DNA from: Alphaproteobacteria bacterium
GTDB taxonomy: Bacteria > Pseudomonadota > Alphaproteobacteria > Rs-D84
Reading direction: 5' to 3'
Assembly (NCBI GenBank): GCA_017616785.1
Contig: JAFZXK010000009.1
Coordinates: 1,612-65,611, forward strand
DNA length: 64,000 bases
This document shows positions 2,990 to 35,041 of the stretch, one piece after another (position 1 is the stretch's first letter; each line of letters begins with the position of its first letter). Under the pieces are notes generated by a model. The model was not told the DNA's origin. It was given only the letters and a program-made list of their open reading frames with translations, and did no database searches. The translations under genes were made by a program, and so were the position numbers.

Positions 2990-3067
2990 GGCGGATGTAG
3001 CTCAGCTGGTTAGAGCGTCGGTTTGTGGTACCGAATGTCGCCGGTTCGAATCCGGTCATCCGCCCCA
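2990..3067 (+). tRNA. tRNA-His (GTG)
   Basis: Full cloverleaf. The anticodon loop TTGTGGT gives GUG. An extra G-1 pairs with C73, and CCA is encoded. Confidence 0.95.
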
Positions 3068-3407: not shown

Positions 3408-3914
3408 ATGCCAGACATACCAGATACAGAATATATTACGGTAAAAGCAGACGGAGTTTTTGTTGGTGGCAAACCTGCTACACATTACCGTGGTGTGAAA
3501 ATAGGTTATCGCAAATCTATAAATATAAATTTTCAGGATATTTTAAAGAAATACCCAAACATTCAAGAAATGCGTTTCTTAACATCGGAAACAGGCGGAG
3601 TGTATCACACAAATGGAAATCCCGTTGCAGAAAACGGTTCGAATGCATGGGCTTGTGTGAAGTTTGATGATGGTTATGTGTCGCCTTAGACTCTTATTTT
3701 TGAACATTATCCTTATGATTTTTTTGTGAGTCATGAAATATGCCGGAAATTACGTCTTATGGCTGATGAATATTGTTTTCTGAAACCAGTATTGGGACGC
3801 TATCAGGATGTGACATTCAGAATAAGTCTACAAAACATGGATGGGAAATCGTTCGAGTTGAATGGTTATAGGATTACGATCGAAAAGATTTCAGAACGAC
3901 AAAAAGGCAAATAA
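3408..3914 (+). pseudogene. hypothetical ORF interrupted by a single in-frame TAG (3687-3689)
   Basis: ORFs 3408-3689 and 3726-3914 are in the same frame. The 12 codons between them contain no stop. Confidence 0.4.
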
Positions 3915-27517: not shown

Positions 27518-28627
27518 TTATGCACCGGTATAATTTTTTATAAACTCTGCCTTAAACTCGGCAAAGCGGCCCTGCTCTATTGATTCGCGGATGCCGCGCA
27601 TCAGGTCTTGATAGAACCAAAGGTTATGCCCGGTAAGCAGGGTTGCACCCAAAATTTCATTGCACTTTATAAGGTGGTGCAAATACGCACGTGAAAGTTT
27701 ACATGCCGGGCAGCCGCATTTGTCATCCAAAGGCGCACTGTCGTCGCGATATTTTGCGTTGCGCATATTCATTGTGCCATGGCGCGTAAATGCCATTGCG
27801 GTACGGCCCGCACGCGTTGGCATAACACAATCGAACATATCAACACCGCGTTCGACCGCGCCCAATATATCAAGTGGTGTTCCAACACCCATTAAATAAC
27901 GCGGTTTGTCCGTCGGCAACATTGGCGCAACCGTCGCAATCATATCAAACATAACACTTTGTGGTTCGCCGACCGCAAGGCCCCCAATTGCATACCCGTC
28001 AAAACCAATTGCCGTAAGGTCCCGTGCAGATTTTTCGCGTAAATCCGTGTAATCCGCACCCTGAACAATGCCGAAAATTCCATATCCGGGGCGGTCAACA
28101 AATGCATCTTTGCTGCGGCGCGCCCAACGCGTAACCATATCAACATTTTTCTCGGCGCGGGCACGCGTTGTCGGCAATTTCAAACACTCGTCCAAAACCA
28201 TCGTAATGTTCGAATCTAGTTTATGTTGAATATGAACGGAATCTTCGGGGCGCAAGAAATGTTTAATTCCGCCGTCAATGTGCGAAGTGAATTCCACGCC
28301 GTCTTCCCGCATCTTTACCAAATTCGAAAGCGACATAACCTGGAACCCGCCACTGTCGGTCAAAATTGGCCCATGCCAACCGCTAAATTTATGCAGGCCG
28401 CCCATTTGTTCCACCAAATCGCCACCGGGGCGCATCATCAAATGATATGTGTTGCCCAAAATAACCTGGGTTCCCGTCGCCGCCACTTGGTCCATGGTCA
28501 GTGCCTTGACCGTTGCGGCCGTTCCAACCGCCATAAACGCGGGCGTTTGAAAAGTTCCATGTGCGGTTTCCACCGCGCCCCGCCGCGCATTTCCATCAGT
28601 TGCTAAAAGACAAAATTTTAGTGACAT
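27518..28627 (-). CDS. tgt: queuine tRNA-ribosyltransferase
   Basis: GTFQTPAFMAVGT, ILTDSGGFQV, and the zinc site CGCPAC...H. Confidence 0.95.
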   Translation of the reverse strand: MSLKFCLLATDGNARRGAVETAHGTFQTPAFMAVGTAATVKALTMDQVAATGTQVILGNTYHLMMRPGGDLVEQMGGLHKFSGWHGPILTDSGGFQVMSLSNLVKMREDGVEFTSHIDGGIKHFLRPEDSVHIQHKLDSNITMVLDECLKLPTTRARAEKNVDMVTRWARRSKDAFVDRPGYGIFGIVQGADYTDLREKSARDLTAIGFDGYAIGGLAVGEPQSVMFDMIATVAPMLPTDKPRYLMGVGTPLDILGAVERGVDMFDCVMPTRAGRTAMAFTRHGTMNMRNAKYRDDSAPLDDKCGCPACKLSRAYLHHLIKCNEILGATLLTGHNLWFYQDLMRGIRESIEQGRFAEFKAEFIKNYTGA

Positions 28628-28632
28628 GTTAA

Positions 28633-29064
28633 TTATCTCCCTTCGTCTGCTTTGTCGTACCATAACTCTCTGACAAATTGATCCAAATTACTTGTATATT
28701 CTCTTCGGACTGTCATTTCCCTCTCTTCTAACCATAGAAGTGCTTGGGTCCAATCGCCTGAATCTTGGCTATCATGTATTCCTTTCATGTGCGCCGTAAA
28801 AACCTCTATATATTTTCGTACACCGTCCGGACACTGTGGGTCAGACAAAAATTTTGACAAAAAAACGCCTACAACTCCAATATCTAGGTGATTTTTGACA
28901 GCGGCACCCCATAATTTATGTGTTTTTATTTTTGTTCTTATATAATTATTGTCTTTATCATCAAACCATACACCGAAATGAGCCGCATATCCAAATGGTG
29001 TCCCGGCATATAAATTTTTCTGTGTTCTGTCTTGAGCTAGTGTGACATTTTTTGCATTAATCAT
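28633..29064 (-). CDS. hypothetical protein wedged between queA and tgt
   Basis: 143-aa AT-rich ORF whose start overlaps the queA stop by 8 nt. Confidence 0.5.
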   Translation of the reverse strand: MINAKNVTLAQDRTQKNLYAGTPFGYAAHFGVWFDDKDNNYIRTKIKTHKLWGAAVKNHLDIGVVGVFLSKFLSDPQCPDGVRKYIEVFTAHMKGIHDSQDSGDWTQALLWLEEREMTVRREYTSNLDQFVRELWYDKADEGR

Positions 29065-30841
29065 ATGACGAATCCTTTCTAAACAATAAACAACAATCGC
29101 CGTAACTGAAAAAGCGGTATTTTTCGGCGACGGCGTGGGCGTATGCGGCTTTCATCTGCTCAAGTCCACTAAATGCCGACACCAACATAAAGAGTGTGCT
29201 TTTGGGCAAATGAAAATTCGTTAGCAGTACATCGACCGCGCGGAACTTGTAACCTGGGGTGATGAAAATATCCGTCGTTCCACAAAACGGCATGATACGT
29301 GGGGCGACACCCCGGCGGGTTTCACCCGCCACCCCTCTAGCCACCAGAGGGGAATTTTGGGCATCATCACAATACGAATTATGTTCTGTTGTAACTGTGT
29401 TGTCATATTCAGGTGCGATAAGTGAAGCGACACCCCGGCGGGTTTCACCCGCCACCCCTCTAGCCAGAGGGGAACTGAGTGTCGATGTTGCCGCCGCCAC
29501 CTCCGACAGAGGGGAATTTTTGGCATCTTCGGAATGCTTTGTTTGAAAACCAAAGCAAGTTCCCCTCTGGCTAGAGGGGTGGCACGAAGTGCCGGGGTGT
29601 CGCGATATCATATCGACAACGTTTGATACATCTTTCAAAATATCCGCGGCGGAAATATGCAATGTTGTAAGCCCCAAAGAAACCAAAAAATTTTCGCGTT
29701 TTTCGTCGTATGCACCTTTGATATCATGTGATGATTTATCGTCTATTTCAATTACCAGACCGGTTTTAGGACAGAAAAAATCAACAATATAATTACCGAT
29801 TACTGTTTGACGATTAAAATTTAATCCGTTAATTTTTTTACCGCTTATTGCACGCCACAATAACGCTTCGGGTAAACTGCCCGCTTTACGCAGGTCGCGC
29901 GCGCGTTGTTTTAGGTTTTGATTTGCTGGTAATGTTTTATAATCGACACCCCGGCGGGTTCCACCCGCCACCCCTCTGGCCAGAGGGGAACTTGCGGCGG
30001 ATTCAAGGGCGCGCAAGGATGTTGTGCCAACGGCGATTACCCGCGTGGCATTGTTGATTATGTCCGCTTGGTCGGGCGTGATACAGAACCATTCACTATG
30101 CATTTTATGTTCAGACAAATTTTCGGTCTTGACCGGCATCCAAGTTCCCGCGCCAACGTGCAAAGTTATCTTTACAATTTGTGCGCCGCGATTTTCAATT
30201 TCGTTCATCAATTCATCGGTAAAGTGCAACCCCGCCGTCGGCGCCGCCATTGACCCCAACGGATCGGCATAGACCGTTTGATAACGCGTGCTGTCGGCAA
30301 CTTCGGCTTCGCGCTTCATATACGGCGGCAGTGGCATTTTGCCCACGCGATTCAATACATCAAAAACATTATCGCAATTAAAGCACAACAACAGGCCGCT
30401 TTCGCTGTCTTTCTTTTTGACGGTTATCGTTGTTCCGTCCGTCATCGTCAATGTGTCGCCGACCTTTATTTTGTTAAATTTACGGCACAACCCCCACCAA
30501 GTTTTATCATCGACCGCGGTGTGCAATGTGATTTCGTGCGCGACACCCCGGCGGGTTTCACACGCCACCCCTCTAGCCAGAGGGGAACTTTTTATTGCGT
30601 CAAACCGCGCCGGAATAACGCGCGAATTGTTAAAGACAACAACATCACCGGGCTGCAAATAATCCAAAAAATCCCGAATATGTTTATCGGAAAGTGCGAC
30701 ACCCCGGTGGGTTTCACCCACCACCCCTCTGGCCAGAGGGGAATTTACAACCAACATGCGGGATGCGTCGCGGCGTTCCAATGGGTGCGATGCGATTAGT
30801 TCCGGCGGTAATTCAAAATCAAAATCTGATGTGTGCAGCAT
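29057..30841 (-). CDS. queA: S-adenosylmethionine:tRNA ribosyltransferase-isomerase QueA carrying in-frame palindromic-element and DUF559 insertions
   Basis: QueA blocks are present in order: FDFELPPELIASHP, FNNSRVIPAR, MPLPPY, YQTVYA, APTAGLHF, LHVGAGT, VIAVGTTS, TNFHLPKSTL, YRFFSYGD. The ORF is 594 aa, versus about 340-360 aa for typical QueA. Confidence 0.85.
   Translation of the reverse strand: MLHTSDFDFELPPELIASHPLERRDASRMLVVNSPLARGVVGETHRGVALSDKHIRDFLDYLQPGDVVVFNNSRVIPARFDAIKSSPLARGVACETRRGVAHEITLHTAVDDKTWWGLCRKFNKIKVGDTLTMTDGTTITVKKKDSESGLLLCFNCDNVFDVLNRVGKMPLPPYMKREAEVADSTRYQTVYADPLGSMAAPTAGLHFTDELMNEIENRGAQIVKITLHVGAGTWMPVKTENLSEHKMHSEWFCITPDQADIINNATRVIAVGTTSLRALESAASSPLARGVAGGTRRGVDYKTLPANQNLKQRARDLRKAGSLPEALLWRAISGKKINGLNFNRQTVIGNYIVDFFCPKTGLVIEIDDKSSHDIKGAYDEKRENFLVSLGLTTLHISAADILKDVSNVVDMISRHPGTSCHPSSQRGTCFGFQTKHSEDAKNSPLSEVAAATSTLSSPLARGVAGETRRGVASLIAPEYDNTVTTEHNSYCDDAQNSPLVARGVAGETRRGVAPRIMPFCGTTDIFITPGYKFRAVDVLLTNFHLPKSTLFMLVSAFSGLEQMKAAYAHAVAEKYRFFSYGDCCLLFRKDSSYD
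29304..29358 (+). repeat. palindromic element copy 1 (in queA)
   Basis: GCGACACCCCGGCGGGTTTCACCCGCCACCCCTCTAGCCACCAGAGGGGAATTT. Confidence 0.85.
29427..29476 (+). repeat. palindromic element copy 2
   Basis: GCGACACCCCGGCGGGTTTCACCCGCCACCCCTCTAGCCAGAGGGGAACT. Confidence 0.85.
29496..29521 (+). repeat. partial/degenerate element copy
   Basis: GCCACCTCCGACAGAGGGGAATTTTT. Only the second-hairpin half is retained. Confidence 0.6.
29558..29603 (-). repeat. palindromic element copy 3 (inverted orientation)
   Basis: AAGTTCCCCTCTGGCTAGAGGGGTGGCACGAAGTGCCGGGGTGTCGC is the reverse complement of the consensus, with a variant first hairpin. Confidence 0.85.
29943..29993 (+). repeat. palindromic element copy 4
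   Basis: TCGACACCCCGGCGGGTTCCACCCGCCACCCCTCTGGCCAGAGGGGAACTT. Confidence 0.85.
30539..30592 (+). repeat. palindromic element copy 5
   Basis: GCGCGACACCCCGGCGGGTTTCACACGCCACCCCTCTAGCCAGAGGGGAACTTT. Confidence 0.85.
30706..30746 (+). repeat. palindromic element copy 6
   Basis: GCGACACCCCGGTGGGTTTCACCCACCACCCCTCTGGCCAGAGGGGAATTT. The first hairpin carries compensatory changes. Confidence 0.85.
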
Positions 30842-31735
30842 TTATTTCTTAAACTCTAAACCTTGGTCGGTGTAGTTTTCGGCGGTATTTTCCCAATCGG
30901 GTTCAACGCGTACAAACAGGTGAAGTCGCGCATTTACGCCCCATTGATCTTGGATATCATGACGCGCCGCCGTCCCAATTTTCTTCAGTTGCGCACCGCC
31001 CCGACCGATAACAATCTTTTTATGCGCATCATTTGCAACAACAATTTTTTGATAAATATCCAAAACACCCGCGTCATCAACATCCACGCGTTCCGTTACA
31101 ACGTTTATGTGATACGGTAATTCTTGGTGAACAAATCGATAAACCTTTTCGCGCGTCAATTCCGCAAGGTATAAATTATCCGGCACATCGGTTGCGTCCG
31201 CCGCGTCAAACAAATATGGCGATTCCGGCATAACGGTTGCCATCGACGCCAGCATTTCGGCGACACCATCGTTTTTCATGGCGGAAATCATAAAGATTTC
31301 ACGAAAATCGGCCATTTCGTTTAGTTCCGCCGCGATGGGCAATAAATCGCTTTTCTTTACCGCGTCCGTTTTATTTAACGCAACAAACAGGTTTTTATGT
31401 TCACGAATTTTTTCAACTATCCCGCGTACCGTATCGGTAATTCCATGTGTTGCGTCAATAATCAGCAAAACCGCGTCCGCGTCGACAAGTGCCGTCATCG
31501 CCGCGGAAACCATTGCGCGGTCAAGCCGACGCGCCGCGCGAAAAATTCCCGGTGTATCAACGAATATCAACTGACGCGCGCCAACCATTTTTATCGCACG
31601 CAGGTTCGTTCGCGTGGTTTGAACCTTATGCGAAACGATTGATACCTTGCGCCCCATGATTTGATTCAACAGGGTGCTTTTGCCGGCATTTGTTGGCCCA
31701 ACAATGGCGATAAAACCAGAATATGTCTTGCTCAT
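30842..31735 (-). CDS. era: GTPase Era
   Basis: SGFIAIVGPTNAGKSTLLN (G1), DTPG (G3), NKTD (G4), and a C-terminal KH domain. The start at 31735 (MSKTYSGF) is preferred over 31756. Confidence 0.95.
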   Translation of the reverse strand: MSKTYSGFIAIVGPTNAGKSTLLNQIMGRKVSIVSHKVQTTRTNLRAIKMVGARQLIFVDTPGIFRAARRLDRAMVSAAMTALVDADAVLLIIDATHGITDTVRGIVEKIREHKNLFVALNKTDAVKKSDLLPIAAELNEMADFREIFMISAMKNDGVAEMLASMATVMPESPYLFDAADATDVPDNLYLAELTREKVYRFVHQELPYHINVVTERVDVDDAGVLDIYQKIVVANDAHKKIVIGRGGAQLKKIGTAARHDIQDQWGVNARLHLFVRVEPDWENTAENYTDQGLEFKK

Positions 31736-31820
31736 ACCACTAACCATAGCACACATATTTCAAAAGTGAATAAAAAAATCCCCATCTTGCGACGGGGATT
31801 CGGAGGTACACACAAACTTT

Positions 31821-32717
31821 TTAGATGCTGTCGGCATTTATCCAGCGGCCATTCTTTAACAGACCCGGCGCCATACCTTCGCTGTTACGCAACGCATCAA
31901 TCACACGACGCGCACCCGCGGCATCAAGATTCACTATACGAACCTTGTACATATCGCCTTCTTTGACGACAATTGCATCGCCATAGTTGCGCATTTTTTG
32001 CAATAATGTATTCGCACTGTCTTCGGCATAGAAAGCCGCAACTTGGACACTGTAATCGCCAGACGCAACCGGTGCCGGTGTCACAGTTGCCGTTTCCACG
32101 GTTGTTTCCTGTTTCGCGACCGGTTCTTGGACCACCGTCGCCCCCGCGGTTTTGCCAACCGTTGCGGTTTTTACCAGCATTGTTTGTTCCGGCATAACCT
32201 GAACCTGGACCTTGGATTGGTTGGTTATACCAAGTTTTTCCGCCGCCGCCGCAGACAGATCCATAATACGCGTGTTCACGAATGGCCCACGATTGTTTAT
32301 ACGAACAACAACCGATTCACCATTTTCTAAATTTGTAACCTTGGCAATAGTGGGAAGCGGCAAAGTTTTACTTGTCGCCAACATTTGGTTCATGTTGTAT
32401 GTTTCACCGTTGCTTGTTTTCGTGCCGTTCAATTCAGTTGGAATTATGCCGGCCATGCCAACCTGGTTATAAGTAAAATCTTCGGCCGGAATGTATTGAA
32501 TATCTTCGACCTTGTACGCATTACCAACATAGTAGCGCGGTGCCGCCGCAAGCAAATAAGAATTATCTGTTTCCGGTGCCGTCGTGGTTTTTGTTTCTGT
32601 TGTTAATGTTTCTTCGCCGATGCCATCAGAACCGTAATCTGTTCCACTTGTTTGGGACAAATCCGCACACCCCGCGACCAGTGCAGTTAAAACCGCCAAA
32701 GATACCAATTTCTTCAT
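31821..32717 (-). CDS. rlpA: septal ring lytic transglycosylase RlpA family lipoprotein (DPBB + SPOR)
   Basis: Lipobox LVAGC. DPBB block ATSKTLPLPTIAKVTNLENGESVVVRINNRGPF. C-terminal SPOR-like YSVQVAAF... Confidence 0.85.
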   Translation of the reverse strand: MKKLVSLAVLTALVAGCADLSQTSGTDYGSDGIGEETLTTETKTTTAPETDNSYLLAAAPRYYVGNAYKVEDIQYIPAEDFTYNQVGMAGIIPTELNGTKTSNGETYNMNQMLATSKTLPLPTIAKVTNLENGESVVVRINNRGPFVNTRIMDLSAAAAEKLGITNQSKVQVQVMPEQTMLVKTATVGKTAGATVVQEPVAKQETTVETATVTPAPVASGDYSVQVAAFYAEDSANTLLQKMRNYGDAIVVKEGDMYKVRIVNLDAAGARRVIDALRNSEGMAPGLLKNGRWINADSI

Positions 32718-32791
32718 TGATTACTCCTTACATTTTACATTCTTTATGACGGTATTATACCATATAAAAAAGGTGGTTTCAACTTTTTATT

Positions 32792-34276
32792 TTATATTTT
32801 ACGATTTATCAAAAATGCGATTGGCATATAGACAATTCCATAGGCCGCGATTGCAATAAACAATGCAAAAATACTGTGTATCGGCACAAACCATAATCCA
32901 AATCCCAATGCGCCCGCAAGCAGTCCAAACACGCAAATTGCACGAACCGTTCGACCATCAATCTTGCTAAGCCCGCGGCGACGACATGCGCGCGCAAGCA
33001 GGTAATTTTTCACATAACCACTGACCACCACGCCGATTGGTATCGCCAAATAACCCACAAACCAAAACAGTCCCAAATATATCGCCGACGCAATGCCAAG
33101 CGATACAATACTTGTCTTGACCGGTGTTTTGACATCTTGGGACGCATAGAGGGTTTTACTGAAAATCTGGCTGACCAGCATGGCAGGCAAAACAAAAACC
33201 TGAATCATTATTGCGACCGCGACCGCGTGTGTGGAATGCGACGTCCATGCGCCGTATTCAAACAAGTATTTAATTATCGGTTCCGCCAAAACAAACAACC
33301 CCGCAACGCATGGCATAATAAGCATCATTGATTGGCGCATCGAAGAATTCTGTTGAATATGAACACTGCGCATATTTTTTTCGGCCAACGCATTTGATAT
33401 TGACGACATTAAAACCGTTCCAACCGCAAGGCCAATCATTGCGAACGGCAATTGAACAATTCTATCGGAATAATACAGCCATGACACCGCGCCACTTTCA
33501 AAACTTGCCACCAAAGTTCCAATGATAATCGTTATCTGATAAAATCCATTGCCAATAATACTGACACCGAAACGTTTGAACATTGTCTTTATTGCCGGTG
33601 TCCATCGTGGAATTACAAGGCGCAAACCAAAATGTTTTCGCCGTATTCGCGACATTAGGACCAAGCACTGAATTATCCCGGACAAAACGACCGTTCCCGC
33701 CATTATGTATAGAACGGTATCCGATGCGCCAATGTACATCGAAAACAATAGTGCGCCAATCAACATAATGTTTAATAAAACCGGCATAAACGCCGCAAGC
33801 ATAAATTGCGAAAAAGCGTTCAATACCGCGCTTAAAAACGCCGCCGCGCAAATGAATATTACATAGAAAAACATTATGCGCGATATGACGACCGTCAATT
33901 CCATCTTGCCCGGCACATCTGCAAACCCAGGTGCCAAAATCCACACAACCAATGGCATAAAGATTTCAAAAACCACGGTTATGCCAAGCAGCACGACCAT
34001 CAACCAAGAAAAAACATTTTTTGCAAATGGTTCATCGTGCTTTGAATCCGCATACATTGGAATAAAAATTGCGGAAAGCGCGCCTTCGCCCAATAAATCA
34101 CGAAATAAATTCGGCAACTTGAACGCGGCAAGAAAAATATCGGACAACCGCCCCGCCCCCAAAACACGCGCAATCAGCATATCGCGAACGAATCCGAATA
34201 TGCGACTTATTCCCGTCATAAGACCAACGCCGAAAATATGTTTGCCAAGTTTCATAGTTTGGATTATACTAAACAC
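32792..34276 (-). CDS. murJ: lipid II flippase MurJ
   Basis: SRIFGFVRDMLIARVLGAG..SDIFLAAFKLPNLFR and a polytopic membrane profile. The true start may be an internal Met. Confidence 0.9.
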   Translation of the reverse strand: MFSIIQTMKLGKHIFGVGLMTGISRIFGFVRDMLIARVLGAGRLSDIFLAAFKLPNLFRDLLGEGALSAIFIPMYADSKHDEPFAKNVFSWLMVVLLGITVVFEIFMPLVVWILAPGFADVPGKMELTVVISRIMFFYVIFICAAAFLSAVLNAFSQFMLAAFMPVLLNIMLIGALLFSMYIGASDTVLYIMAGTVVLSGIIQCLVLMSRIRRKHFGLRLVIPRWTPAIKTMFKRFGVSIIGNGFYQITIIIGTLVASFESGAVSWLYYSDRIVQLPFAMIGLAVGTVLMSSISNALAEKNMRSVHIQQNSSMRQSMMLIMPCVAGLFVLAEPIIKYLFEYGAWTSHSTHAVAVAIMIQVFVLPAMLVSQIFSKTLYASQDVKTPVKTSIVSLGIASAIYLGLFWFVGYLAIPIGVVVSGYVKNYLLARACRRRGLSKIDGRTVRAICVFGLLAGALGFGLWFVPIHSIFALFIAIAAYGIVYMPIAFLINRKI

Positions 34277-34309
34277 GAATAACCAAAATCAAGACAGGAA
34301 TAAACAGAA

Positions 34310-35041
34310 ATGAGAAAATTATTTTTACCGCTTTTATTGGGCGCAATTGTTGCCGGGTGCAGTGGTGATGCCGATAAAATTATTACAAATAAATCGCTTG
34401 CCGAATTGTATGACGACGCATACGGCGAATTTGAAAAAAAAGATTATGACGATGCCGCCGAAAAATTTATGGTGGTGGAAACCCAATACCCGGCAAGTCC
34501 GTGGTCGGCGGACGCGTTGATTATGGCGGCATATTCGCAATACTTGGACGACGATTTTGCCGGTGCAATTCTTACCGCCGACCGGTTTATGCGGTTTCAC
34601 CCGGGGCATAAGGATGTTCCGTATGTGCTTTACCTGCGCGGGATGTGCTATTATCGCCAGGTAAGCGATGTTCGCCGAGAACCAGGTATGTCGGTGTATG
34701 CCCTGCAACAATTTCAGCAAATTGTTGACCGTTTTCCGCGTTCGCCCTATGCCGAAAACGCAAAAAATAAAATCAATATCCTAAAAAACTATATCGCGGG
34801 CAAGGTTATGTATTCCGCACGCAACGATATGCACAAAGAAAATTGGGCAAGTGCGATTACAAAATTTCAATCGGTTATTACCGATGCGCCGGAAACCGTT
34901 ATGCCCGAAGAAGCAATGTATCGTTTGACCGAGGCATATACCGCAATCGGCCTGACCGAGCAAGCCGATGGTTACGCCGAAATGTTGAAATTGAATTTTC
35001 CGGATGGCCGGTGGGCGAAAAAGTTAAAGGATAAAGAGTAA
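34310..35041 (+). CDS. bamD: outer membrane protein assembly factor BamD
   Basis: Lipobox IVAGC, TPR-like repeats, and FPxSPYA motifs typical of BamD/YfiO. Confidence 0.85.
   Translation: MRKLFLPLLLGAIVAGCSGDADKIITNKSLAELYDDAYGEFEKKDYDDAAEKFMVVETQYPASPWSADALIMAAYSQYLDDDFAGAILTADRFMRFHPGHKDVPYVLYLRGMCYYRQVSDVRREPGMSVYALQQFQQIVDRFPRSPYAENAKNKINILKNYIAGKVMYSARNDMHKENWASAITKFQSVITDAPETVMPEEAMYRLTEAYTAIGLTEQADGYAEMLKLNFPDGRWAKKLKDKE

Follow-up and report, generated by a model that had tools for sequence, protein, structure and literature searches.

The gene queA on a 64,000-nt stretch of DNA from an alphaproteobacterium of the order Rs-D84 (the window; contig JAFZXK010000009.1, positions 1,612 to 65,611 of the forward strand) carries within its reading frame a 441-nt cassette, which consists of a left hairpin repeat, a DUF559 nuclease domain and an inverted right hairpin repeat (29555..29995, minus strand), and which is accompanied by further copies of the same repeat. 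We think it probable that this is a selfish nuclease cassette which, together with its solo-repeat derivatives, is tolerated in surface loops of QueA; its nuclease may act on the repeats. The host queA itself, to judge from its conservation and from the intact tgt nearby, is probably a working gene that still encodes an active QueA. Comparisons made at the sequence level show that the cassette changes place, and comes and goes between close relatives, and that the oriented, hairpin-bracketed arrangement recurs in many genes and phyla.

A first-pass annotation of the window had recognised the repeats and read them as a bare element of about 50 bp that colonises queA in the manner of the Rickettsia palindromic elements (RPE). 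The part of this proposal that concerns in-frame palindromes, a constrained queA, insertion in loops and compensatory changes stands. What does not stand is a bare element that colonises the gene unaided: the DUF559 cassette has the copies at 29943 and 29555 as its inverted terminal repeats, and the others are solo or tandem derivatives near the landing sites.

The cassette and its repeats in the queA frame

The reading frame of queA (29057..30841, minus strand) is open throughout its 594 codons, as the first-pass annotation had stated, and encodes a chimera of QueA and DUF559. Only Queuosine_synth and DUF559 were found in a Pfam scan of this chimera, the match to the former (PF02547, E = 2e-112) being split in two stretches. 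The product matches QueA over the whole profile and over a solved structure: in the alignment to PDB 1yy3 (E = 7.9e-75), residues 7-284 of the query correspond to residues 10-269 of the chain and residues 520-586 to residues 279-345, the latter pair representing the C-terminal segment of QueA (aa 516-594; 29057..29296, minus strand). Both this alignment and the comparison of orthologues place the insertions where they had been placed before, after MLVVN (site 1), ARFDAIK (site 2) and LESAA (site 3), and in a model of the whole protein all three points fall between secondary-structure elements (E27-33/E49-54, E79-84/E101-109 and H273-284/E538-542). The predicted local distance difference test (pLDDT) score in this model is below 50 in the repeat-coded segments (aa 37-46, 285-298 and 420-530) and 83-94 in DUF559.

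The third insertion spans about 231 codons (29297-29989). Between the repeat copies at 29943 and 29555 it holds a full DUF559 domain, which is absent from the first-pass annotation, and the insertion is therefore a cassette. The domain (PF04480, a Vsr-like PD-(D/E)xK nuclease domain; aa 309-413; 29603..29917, minus strand) was recovered by Pfam with E = 4.1e-25 and a score of 88.2 bits against a gathering cut-off of 20.6, and the residues that are invariant in the family (D54, E65, D67 and H72 in the domain numbering of the DUF559 alignment) are all present. Its sequence matches a DUF559 structure from Neisseria, 3hrl, with E = 4.4e-14. A model of the domain (pLDDT 88) again found 3hrl as the best match in Foldseek (E = 1.6e-6, template modelling (TM) scores 0.67/0.80), followed by the catalytic domain of I-Bth0305I (3r3p; E = 2.9e-4, TM 0.61/0.69), which places it in the Vsr-like fold; the match to Vsr itself (1vsr) is weaker (E = 0.08).

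The outer 29 nt of the two cassette ends (29555-29583 and 29967-29995) are 97% complementary. The cassette has neither a start nor a stop codon of its own, and the frame runs open through both repeats. The DUF559 protein is under selection, the ratio of non-synonymous to synonymous substitution (dN/dS) being 0.03-0.19 among the eight orthologous species treated below; since it lacks a start codon of its own, this selection implies translation within QueA. Presumably the insert stays in the mature protein, unspliced. The 594-aa product has no match to a Hint or intein domain of Pfam, and the junctions of the insert, LESAA|SSPL... and ...RRGVA|PRIM, contain no splicing nucleophile.

In total, a double-hairpin element of about 50 nt is present in queA in six full copies and a half copy, exactly the number counted before. 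The five full direct copies of the 50-nt unit (29304, 29427, 29943, 30540 and 30696) were recovered at 84-100% identity. In the order of the gene, and all on the minus strand, site 1 holds a solo element in F orientation (30696..30746), which reads NSPLARGVVGETHRGVA after MLVV and has the compensated stem GGTGGG/CCCACC; this compensation had been recognised correctly, with the start of the copy misplaced at 30706, where its hairpin 1 begins. Site 2 holds another solo element in F orientation (30540..30590), which reads SSPLARGVACETRRGVA after ARFDAIK and has one stem mismatch. At site 3, the left terminal repeat of the cassette (F; 29943..29995) reads SSPLARGVAGGTRRGV after LESAA, and the right terminal repeat (R, inverted; 29555..29607) reads RHPGTSCHPSSQRGT and has a hairpin 1 that differs yet still pairs (GGCAC-GAA-GTGCC). 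Beyond the cassette there follow a degenerate half copy, a remnant of hairpin 2 (29491..29516; 73% to the reference copy), and two more direct copies in F orientation: the trailing solo element that serves as reference copy (29427..29478) and a last trailing element (29304..29358), whose hairpin-2 loop contains 3 inserted nt that keep the frame. The half copy at 29491 and the copy at 29304 have their outer flank in common (86%), so that a local duplication is likely. The peptides predicted earlier, SPLARGV(A/V)GETRRGV for the common orientation and RHPGTSCHPSSQRGT for the inverted copy, are those obtained here.

From its outer to its inner end the repeat consists of AAGTT, CCCCTCT-loop-AGAGGGG, TG, a variable hairpin and then GGGGTGTCG. 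Each copy can form two hairpins on either strand, the DNA free energies lying between -11.8 and -16.1 kcal/mol and the z-scores between -2.9 and -4.8. A 42-nt consensus with up to 3 mismatches has four matches in the window, as compared to none in 100 shuffles, the sub-patterns of hairpin 1 and hairpin 2 occur in five places each where 0 are expected, and an nhmmer profile search gave six matches, all inside queA. None of these consensus, sub-pattern and profile searches found a repeat outside 29304-30748 in the 64-kb window, in accordance with the first-pass annotation. An Rfam scan of 28500-31500 with E up to 1 returned no relevant match and no intron, the only hit being a chance one to CrcZ at 13.8 bits.

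Outside hairpin 1, only 2 of 32 anchor positions of the right repeat vary among the eight species, and neighbouring synonymous sites are saturated. Anchors that are nearly invariant while synonymous sites are saturated suggest that nucleotide sequence and structure are selected, or that the copies are homogenised; they do not suggest that the coded peptide is what selection acts on. Hairpin 1, which lies between the conserved anchors, has 44 distinct sequences in 83 copies, with at least 14 different stems, and almost all are perfect palindromes (mean perfect stem 4.9 bp versus 2.7 in shuffles).

Repeat and nuclease beyond the window

Species-representative genomes were scanned with the 23-mer CCACCCCTCTRGCCAGAGGGGAA, which yielded 55 loci, the window's own genome not being among them. 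Nearly all belong to Candidatus Enterousia and other uncultured gut or rumen Alphaproteobacteria; genomes in the order Rs-D84 have a size of about 0.75-1.0 Mb (PMC12306168). Seven of the 55 loci represent the orthologous tgt-queA-era region, with 80-86% identity to the window, and queA contains the cassette in all seven. The repeats are not confined to this gene, as the idea of a pile-up specific to queA would have it: the assembly CALABO has 15 repeat matches in 6 loci, only 3 of them in queA, and solo repeats are dispersed in the related genomes, mostly outside long open reading frames (ORFs). Candidate in-frame solo elements in other conserved genes were not counted; their host frames are without a Pfam family, three having a sub-threshold match to Flg_new only, and in most of these long frames the element lies at or near the 5' end.

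A metagenome scan with the DUF559 alignment gave 80 diverse loci with 43-61% identity. An exact inverted repeat of at least 12 nt is common to both 190-nt flanks in 46 of 72 loci (shuffles: mean 7.3, maximum 10-15), and it is nearly always AATTCCCCTCC-N4-GGAGGGGTG-hairpin-GGGGTGGT. When strict motifs are required in 68 loci, TTCCCC-N5-14-GGGGTG is found upstream in 50, CACCCC-N5-14-GGGGAA downstream in 51 and both in 43, as compared to 8 and 8 occurrences in the swapped orientation and a background of 0.046 per kb per strand. In 32 of 56 loci the DUF559 frame continues without a stop through the left repeat, and in 43 of 57 it does so through the right repeat.

About 20 of the 80 metagenome loci, and 37 of the best 150 representatives of the family, have DUF559 inside a long protein. 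The in-frame hosts comprise QueA, Type I HsdR, HsdS, N6/N4 methylases, Type IIG and ISP enzymes, class II fumarase, Mur ligases, cofactor-independent phosphoglycerate mutase (iPGM) and class-V aminotransferase, and in all of them hairpin-coded peptides are present on both sides of DUF559. In HsdR the insertion lies between the nuclease and the motor domains, and in fumarase it splits Lyase_1 at profile position 97/98. QueA, HsdR, HsdS, methylase, fumarase, Mur ligase and iPGM proteins "with DUF559" are probably hosts that carry an insertion, not designed fusions. The DUF559 family as a whole comprises 47,192 clusters at 50% identity (E up to 0.001).

These data bear on an alternative that we consider unlikely, namely that a bare 50-bp element, similar to RPE or to MITEs (miniature transposable elements with inverted repeats), spreads alone or by means of an enzyme encoded elsewhere, and that DUF559 is a passenger caught between two copies. 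The dispersal of solo copies mostly outside long ORFs would fit such an element, as would site 2 of QueA, which is solo-only in all homologues seen (no DUF559 in about 120 homologues), and the tandem solo arrays that exist. However, the oriented pairing of hairpins and DUF559 in 43 of 68 unrelated loci, which extends across bacterial classes, is far above the background given above and would not be expected of a chance passenger; moreover, the cassette lineages have different repeat types that co-vary on both sides.

Free-standing relatives of DUF559 occur in other metagenome-assembled genomes (MAGs) of Alphaproteobacteria. In one of them (L059) the inverted repeats, 23 nt long and 100% complementary, lie inside the ORF, with start and stop codons outside the repeats. 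In Ghiorsea (Zetaproteobacteria) a DUF559 gene between nadC and birA carries at its 5' end the 23-mer in identical form and, at its 3' end, a related copy. In this Ghiorsea sp. MAG (L004:4150-4990), the DUF559 ORF lies between direct, not inverted, composite copies and overlaps the start of birA; the composite consists of the double-hairpin element and a second hairpin family (TTCCCCTTCAAGTTTGAAGGGGTGGCAGCCAGAGGCTGACGGGGTAG), which is duplicated upstream. Another free-standing DUF559 gene (L056:3001-3513) is located between uvrB, which ends at 3004, and tsaE, which starts at 3515, the stop and start codons overlapping; apparently it relies on the translational coupling of an operon instead of living inside a gene.

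In the plasmid collection only distant DUF559 relatives were found (31-40% identity). Two of the more distant loci, Picosynechococcus PCC 7002 pAQ6 (L144) and the 3hrl-type locus of Neisseria gonorrhoeae (L145), have DUF559 without the TTCCCC...GGGGTG motifs; here the genes are flanked on both sides by other repeat families in direct orientation, those of PCC 7002 being rich in hairpins. The association of DUF559 with repeats may extend beyond a single repeat type, and both organisms are cultured and would be tractable for experiments with DUF559.

Two nucleases are found side by side in one Type I HsdR (L071:1496-5335, SDBV01006722.1), where a GIY-YIG domain (aa 481-550) stands just after an in-frame DUF559 cassette (aa 345-446), so that both homing-type nucleases are nested in a single linker from HSDR_N to SWI2/SNF2. 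A protein of 377 aa (P0160) has three tandem DUF559 stretches and a Type IIG-like enzyme of 1214 aa (P0161) has two; cassettes seem able to stack.

Place, gain and loss of the cassette in queA

In all eight loci, that is, the window and its seven orthologues, queA is open and contains an in-frame cassette, the position of which differs. The cassette is found at site 1, after MLVV, in L016, L032, L043 and L010, at site 3, after LESAA, in the window, L036 and L030, and at both sites in L001; each site is seen empty in at least one of the orthologous loci. The variant of the repeat that occupies site 1 of the window is the trailing copy of the site-1 cassette in L016 and L010. Site 2 is empty in L062, L036 and L016, where it reads ARFDADGHEITLH.

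In a close relative, L062, whose identity to the window is 93-97%, sites 1 and 2 are empty, the former reading MLVVEGEKITDKH, and site 3 contains a single solo repeat. The left junction of this repeat, GCCGCA|AGTTCCCC, is that of the window's first copy there; its right junction, GTGTCGCC|CCACG, is identical to the one between the window's last trailing element and the C-terminal part of QueA. The state in L062 may be the product of recombination between the direct copies that flank the cassette, or else a landing place for a cassette. In comparison with the empty sites of L062, a few loop codons are replaced at sites 1 and 2 of the window, not simply added.

Co-conversion of the queA flanks was considered as a sign of homing: the stretch from site 1 to site 2 is 82% identical to L062 and more diverged than its neighbours. 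The whole region of 4.8 kb is a mosaic of blocks with 100% and with 81-93% identity, and therefore no specific claim of co-conversion is made. This alternation extends over murJ, a SPOR-domain gene, era and queA (window 29944-34848 versus L062:1-4808) and suggests that homologous recombination is frequent in this gut population. The "empty" site 1 of L036 (L036:3155-3190) reads EPSGTGGKLSIS (GGGGGAAAACT; ...CCCAGCGGGACCGGGGGAAAACT...) and resembles the outer end of the right terminal repeat (HPSTGGEL / GGAGGGGAACT); as a footprint of a lost cassette it is suggestive, and too degenerate for use.

On a broader scale, a full-protein search revealed QueA proteins with an internal DUF559, 480-728 aa long, in more than 100 distinct clusters at 90% identity, next to close relatives of 338-360 aa that lack the cassette (e.g. 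P0120, P0136 and P0150) and have a conserved QueA. In these clusters DUF559 is located at about positions 30-38 or 251-271 of the P0120 reference only, several proteins having it at both, and short solo inserts are also present at about position 69-72, where DUF559 never occurs. A neighbour-joining tree of 82 embedded DUF559 domains requires at least 12 switches between sites, as compared to a mean of 22.9 and a minimum of 17 with shuffled labels. The three main lineages of the cassette, each with its own co-varying flank peptides, are all found at both sites.

A second alternative, which we rate as slightly less probable than a bare element, is a domesticated domain: DUF559 and its repeat-coded linkers would have been captured once and would now be a useful part of QueA, for instance in nucleic-acid binding or the handling of tRNA, so that mobility would be a matter of history. 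DUF559 and QueA are under equally strong purifying selection, and the divergence of the two is matched. In the comparison of the window with L036 the dN/dS pair values are 0.086/0.919 for DUF559 and 0.090/0.918 for QueA, and between L036 and L032 they are 0.031/0.493 and, for the QueA core, 0.030/0.513, though the cassette is at site 3 in one and at site 1 in the other. The presence of the cassette in more than 100 QueA clusters of the clade, and in queA only among the examined loci of related genomes, also favours this explanation. On the other hand, it has to account for the at least 12 switches between two loops and for genes with two cassettes, for the conserved QueA of close relatives that have no cassette at all, and for hairpin-bracketed cassettes in unrelated enzymes and in intergenic DNA of other phyla. 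The terminal repeats, furthermore, are conserved at the nucleotide level, including synonymous positions, which a role as linker does not need.

The QueA part of the chimera evolves under constraint in the eight species (pairwise dN/dS 0.02-0.14 in the core and 0.00-0.17 in the C-terminal segment, with synonymous sites near saturation), and its core has long invariant runs of residues. That queA might be a decaying pseudogene, or its repeat array an assembly artefact, is hardly credible. Repeats are well known to cause misassembly, and an enzyme of 340 codons with 250 additional ones looks suspicious. Yet no stop interrupts the 594 codons of the frame, even though one of the three reading frames on each strand of the element contains one, the core dN/dS is low, the architecture is found in more than 100 clusters from many samples, and the 1785-nt gene recurs, with 1 nt different, in an independent metagenome assembly from another sample (L063), so that the arrangement is not the misassembly which the first-pass annotation had allowed for.

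Proposed mechanism, known systems and gene surroundings

Under the selfish-cassette reading that we prefer, the ribosome would read the cassette as part of QueA; the repeats would be translated as disordered linkers rich in Pro, Gly, Ser and Arg, and the nuclease would fold as an extra domain on a surface loop. DUF559 may recognise the hairpin repeats and cut or nick them, and such cutting could cause the cassette to be copied into resident solo repeats (homing by repair), cassette and solo repeats to be transposed, or both. With the F-DUF559-R-F layout, a copy that bears the cassette would be the template for repairing a broken resident solo F, with the two flanking F copies as homology arms, and the reverse recombination would regenerate a solo F; transposition through the hairpin ends would be an alternative route. 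Solo repeats would be left behind when the nuclease and the inverted repeat are lost by recombination between direct copies, or they might insert on their own like MITEs, the other copies being local duplications. A repeat that had once settled in a permissive loop would have become a landing pad, and the copies would mark two or three permissive loops in which cassettes and repeats land again and again. Homing via a solo F would explain why different lineages occupy the same two loops and why repeats have piled up there, and in queA; in queA they may have piled up because the cassette has lived in this gene across the whole clade (more than 100 clusters, two sites only).

Several points weigh against this reading. 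The divergence of DUF559 follows that of QueA in each species pair, and such a long co-divergence fits a domesticated domain. The restriction of close DUF559 relatives to queA among the examined loci of related genomes is odd for a freely transposing element. Several solo-rich genomes have no cassette among the loci examined, and the comparison of the window with L062 allowed neither a target-site duplication nor a clean insertion junction to be defined. The model of the whole protein has a mean pLDDT of 62, which is moderate only. To our knowledge no DUF559 protein has a known biochemical activity, which makes the cutting of hairpin repeats pure inference, and all readings discussed here were derived from comparisons of protein and DNA sequences.

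Compared to known systems, the repeats share with RPE that they are palindromes which lie in frame in conserved protein genes, are translated, and occur where the fold tolerates them, here in three QueA loops with the frame kept, and that their hosts are reduced alphaproteobacterial genomes. RPE-1 to RPE-10 (Ogata et al. 2000) are presented in the cited account as about 100-150 bp long, specific to Rickettsia and without an associated enzyme (PMC10969869). Unlike RPE so described, the present repeats measure about 50 bp, have two hairpins, form the inverted ends of a nuclease-coding cassette, and belong to a family that extends far beyond one genus; by size, host (Ca. Enterousia and Rs-D84 gut MAGs) and associated enzyme they are set apart from the RPE families, as far as the descriptions go.

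A second comparison is with the repetitive extragenic palindromic (REP) and REPIN sequences and the REP-associated tyrosine transposases (RAYTs), which were reportedly described by Nunvar in 2010 and by Bertels and Rainey in 2011. RAYTs, which are extragenic, belong to the HUH/Y1 transposases of the IS200/IS605 type. Both systems have short dispersed hairpin repeats and a single-copy, vertically inherited enzyme gene under purifying selection, which is flanked by inverted copies of the repeat; an enzyme between inverted copies is seen in the window and in 43 of 68 unrelated DUF559 loci. DUF559 might act on its repeats as a RAYT transposase does on REP sequences. In contrast to RAYTs, the enzyme here is a Vsr-like PD-(D/E)xK nuclease and not a Y1 HUH protein, lacks start and stop codons of its own, and is embedded in the frame of a host gene.

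Vsr-like (EDxHD) homing endonucleases such as I-Bth0305I and the "fractured gene" endonucleases belong to the same nuclease superfamily and likewise are selfish genes in conserved genes. They reside in group I introns or between the halves of split inteins, as separate ORFs with their own starts and extra DNA-binding domains (PMC3239194, PMC2677866), whereas the cassette has neither intron nor intein, forms no separate ORF, has hairpin terminal repeats, and encodes only the core of about 110 aa. With inteins it shares the in-frame, nuclease-carrying insertion in a conserved enzyme that is translated with its host; unlike them it lacks a Hint or splicing domain, and the junction residues are S...A|P. 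Finally, MITEs and small transposons with terminal inverted repeats resemble it in such repeats (29-nt arms of 97% in the window; 23 nt and 100% in L059), in solo derivatives and in presence/absence polymorphism, but differ in that no known transposase family is involved in the cassette and that a coding frame runs through its repeats; as for a target-site duplication, filled sites of the window differ from the empty ones of L062 by replaced loop codons, with no clean duplication.

Whether these differences amount to a distinct, widespread and undescribed class of mobile element, in which a start-less and stop-less DUF559 cassette with double-hairpin ends persists in essential and other genes as an unspliced loop domain of the mature host protein, unlike introns and inteins, which splice, and in which DUF559 acts specifically on hairpins as a homing nuclease or transposase and mobilises the solo repeats too, is a more tentative matter, for which we see a little less than an even chance; still, there is a substantial chance that the system deserves a class of its own. 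Open-access papers and bioRxiv yielded no published account of DUF559 or COG2852 as a mobile or repeat-flanked element. If true, this would be the first function for the large DUF559 family, nuclease-like and without a known role, for which it offers a concrete and testable proposal, and many "multidomain" DUF559 architectures in databases would be parasitic insertions. Beside introns and inteins, a third lifestyle would exist for a selfish nuclease gene in conserved genes, that of a read-through, tolerated surface domain, whose terminal repeats double as flexible linkers. It would join in-frame palindromes of the RPE type with repeat-plus-enzyme systems of the REP/RAYT type, and would hint at where the enzymes of other orphan repeats lie. 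The natural insertion points and linkers would, in addition, provide a catalogue of permissive sites for domain insertion.

Within queA of the window, G+C content is 36% in the coding part of DUF559 (29600-29799), about 47-53% in the flanking queA core and 50-57% in the repeat-rich stretches; the low G+C of DUF559 persists despite its long co-divergence with the host gene. The gene is bordered by era (30842..31756) on one side and, on the other, by a 143-aa ORF and then tgt (27518..28663, minus strand), which is intact (Pfam TGT, E = 2.5e-153) and encodes the enzyme that acts before QueA in queuosine synthesis. The 143-aa ORF (28633-29064, minus strand) belongs to no Pfam family and has an 8-nt overlap with the stop of queA, and in the equivalent position L062 has an ORF of 152 aa with no recorded family.

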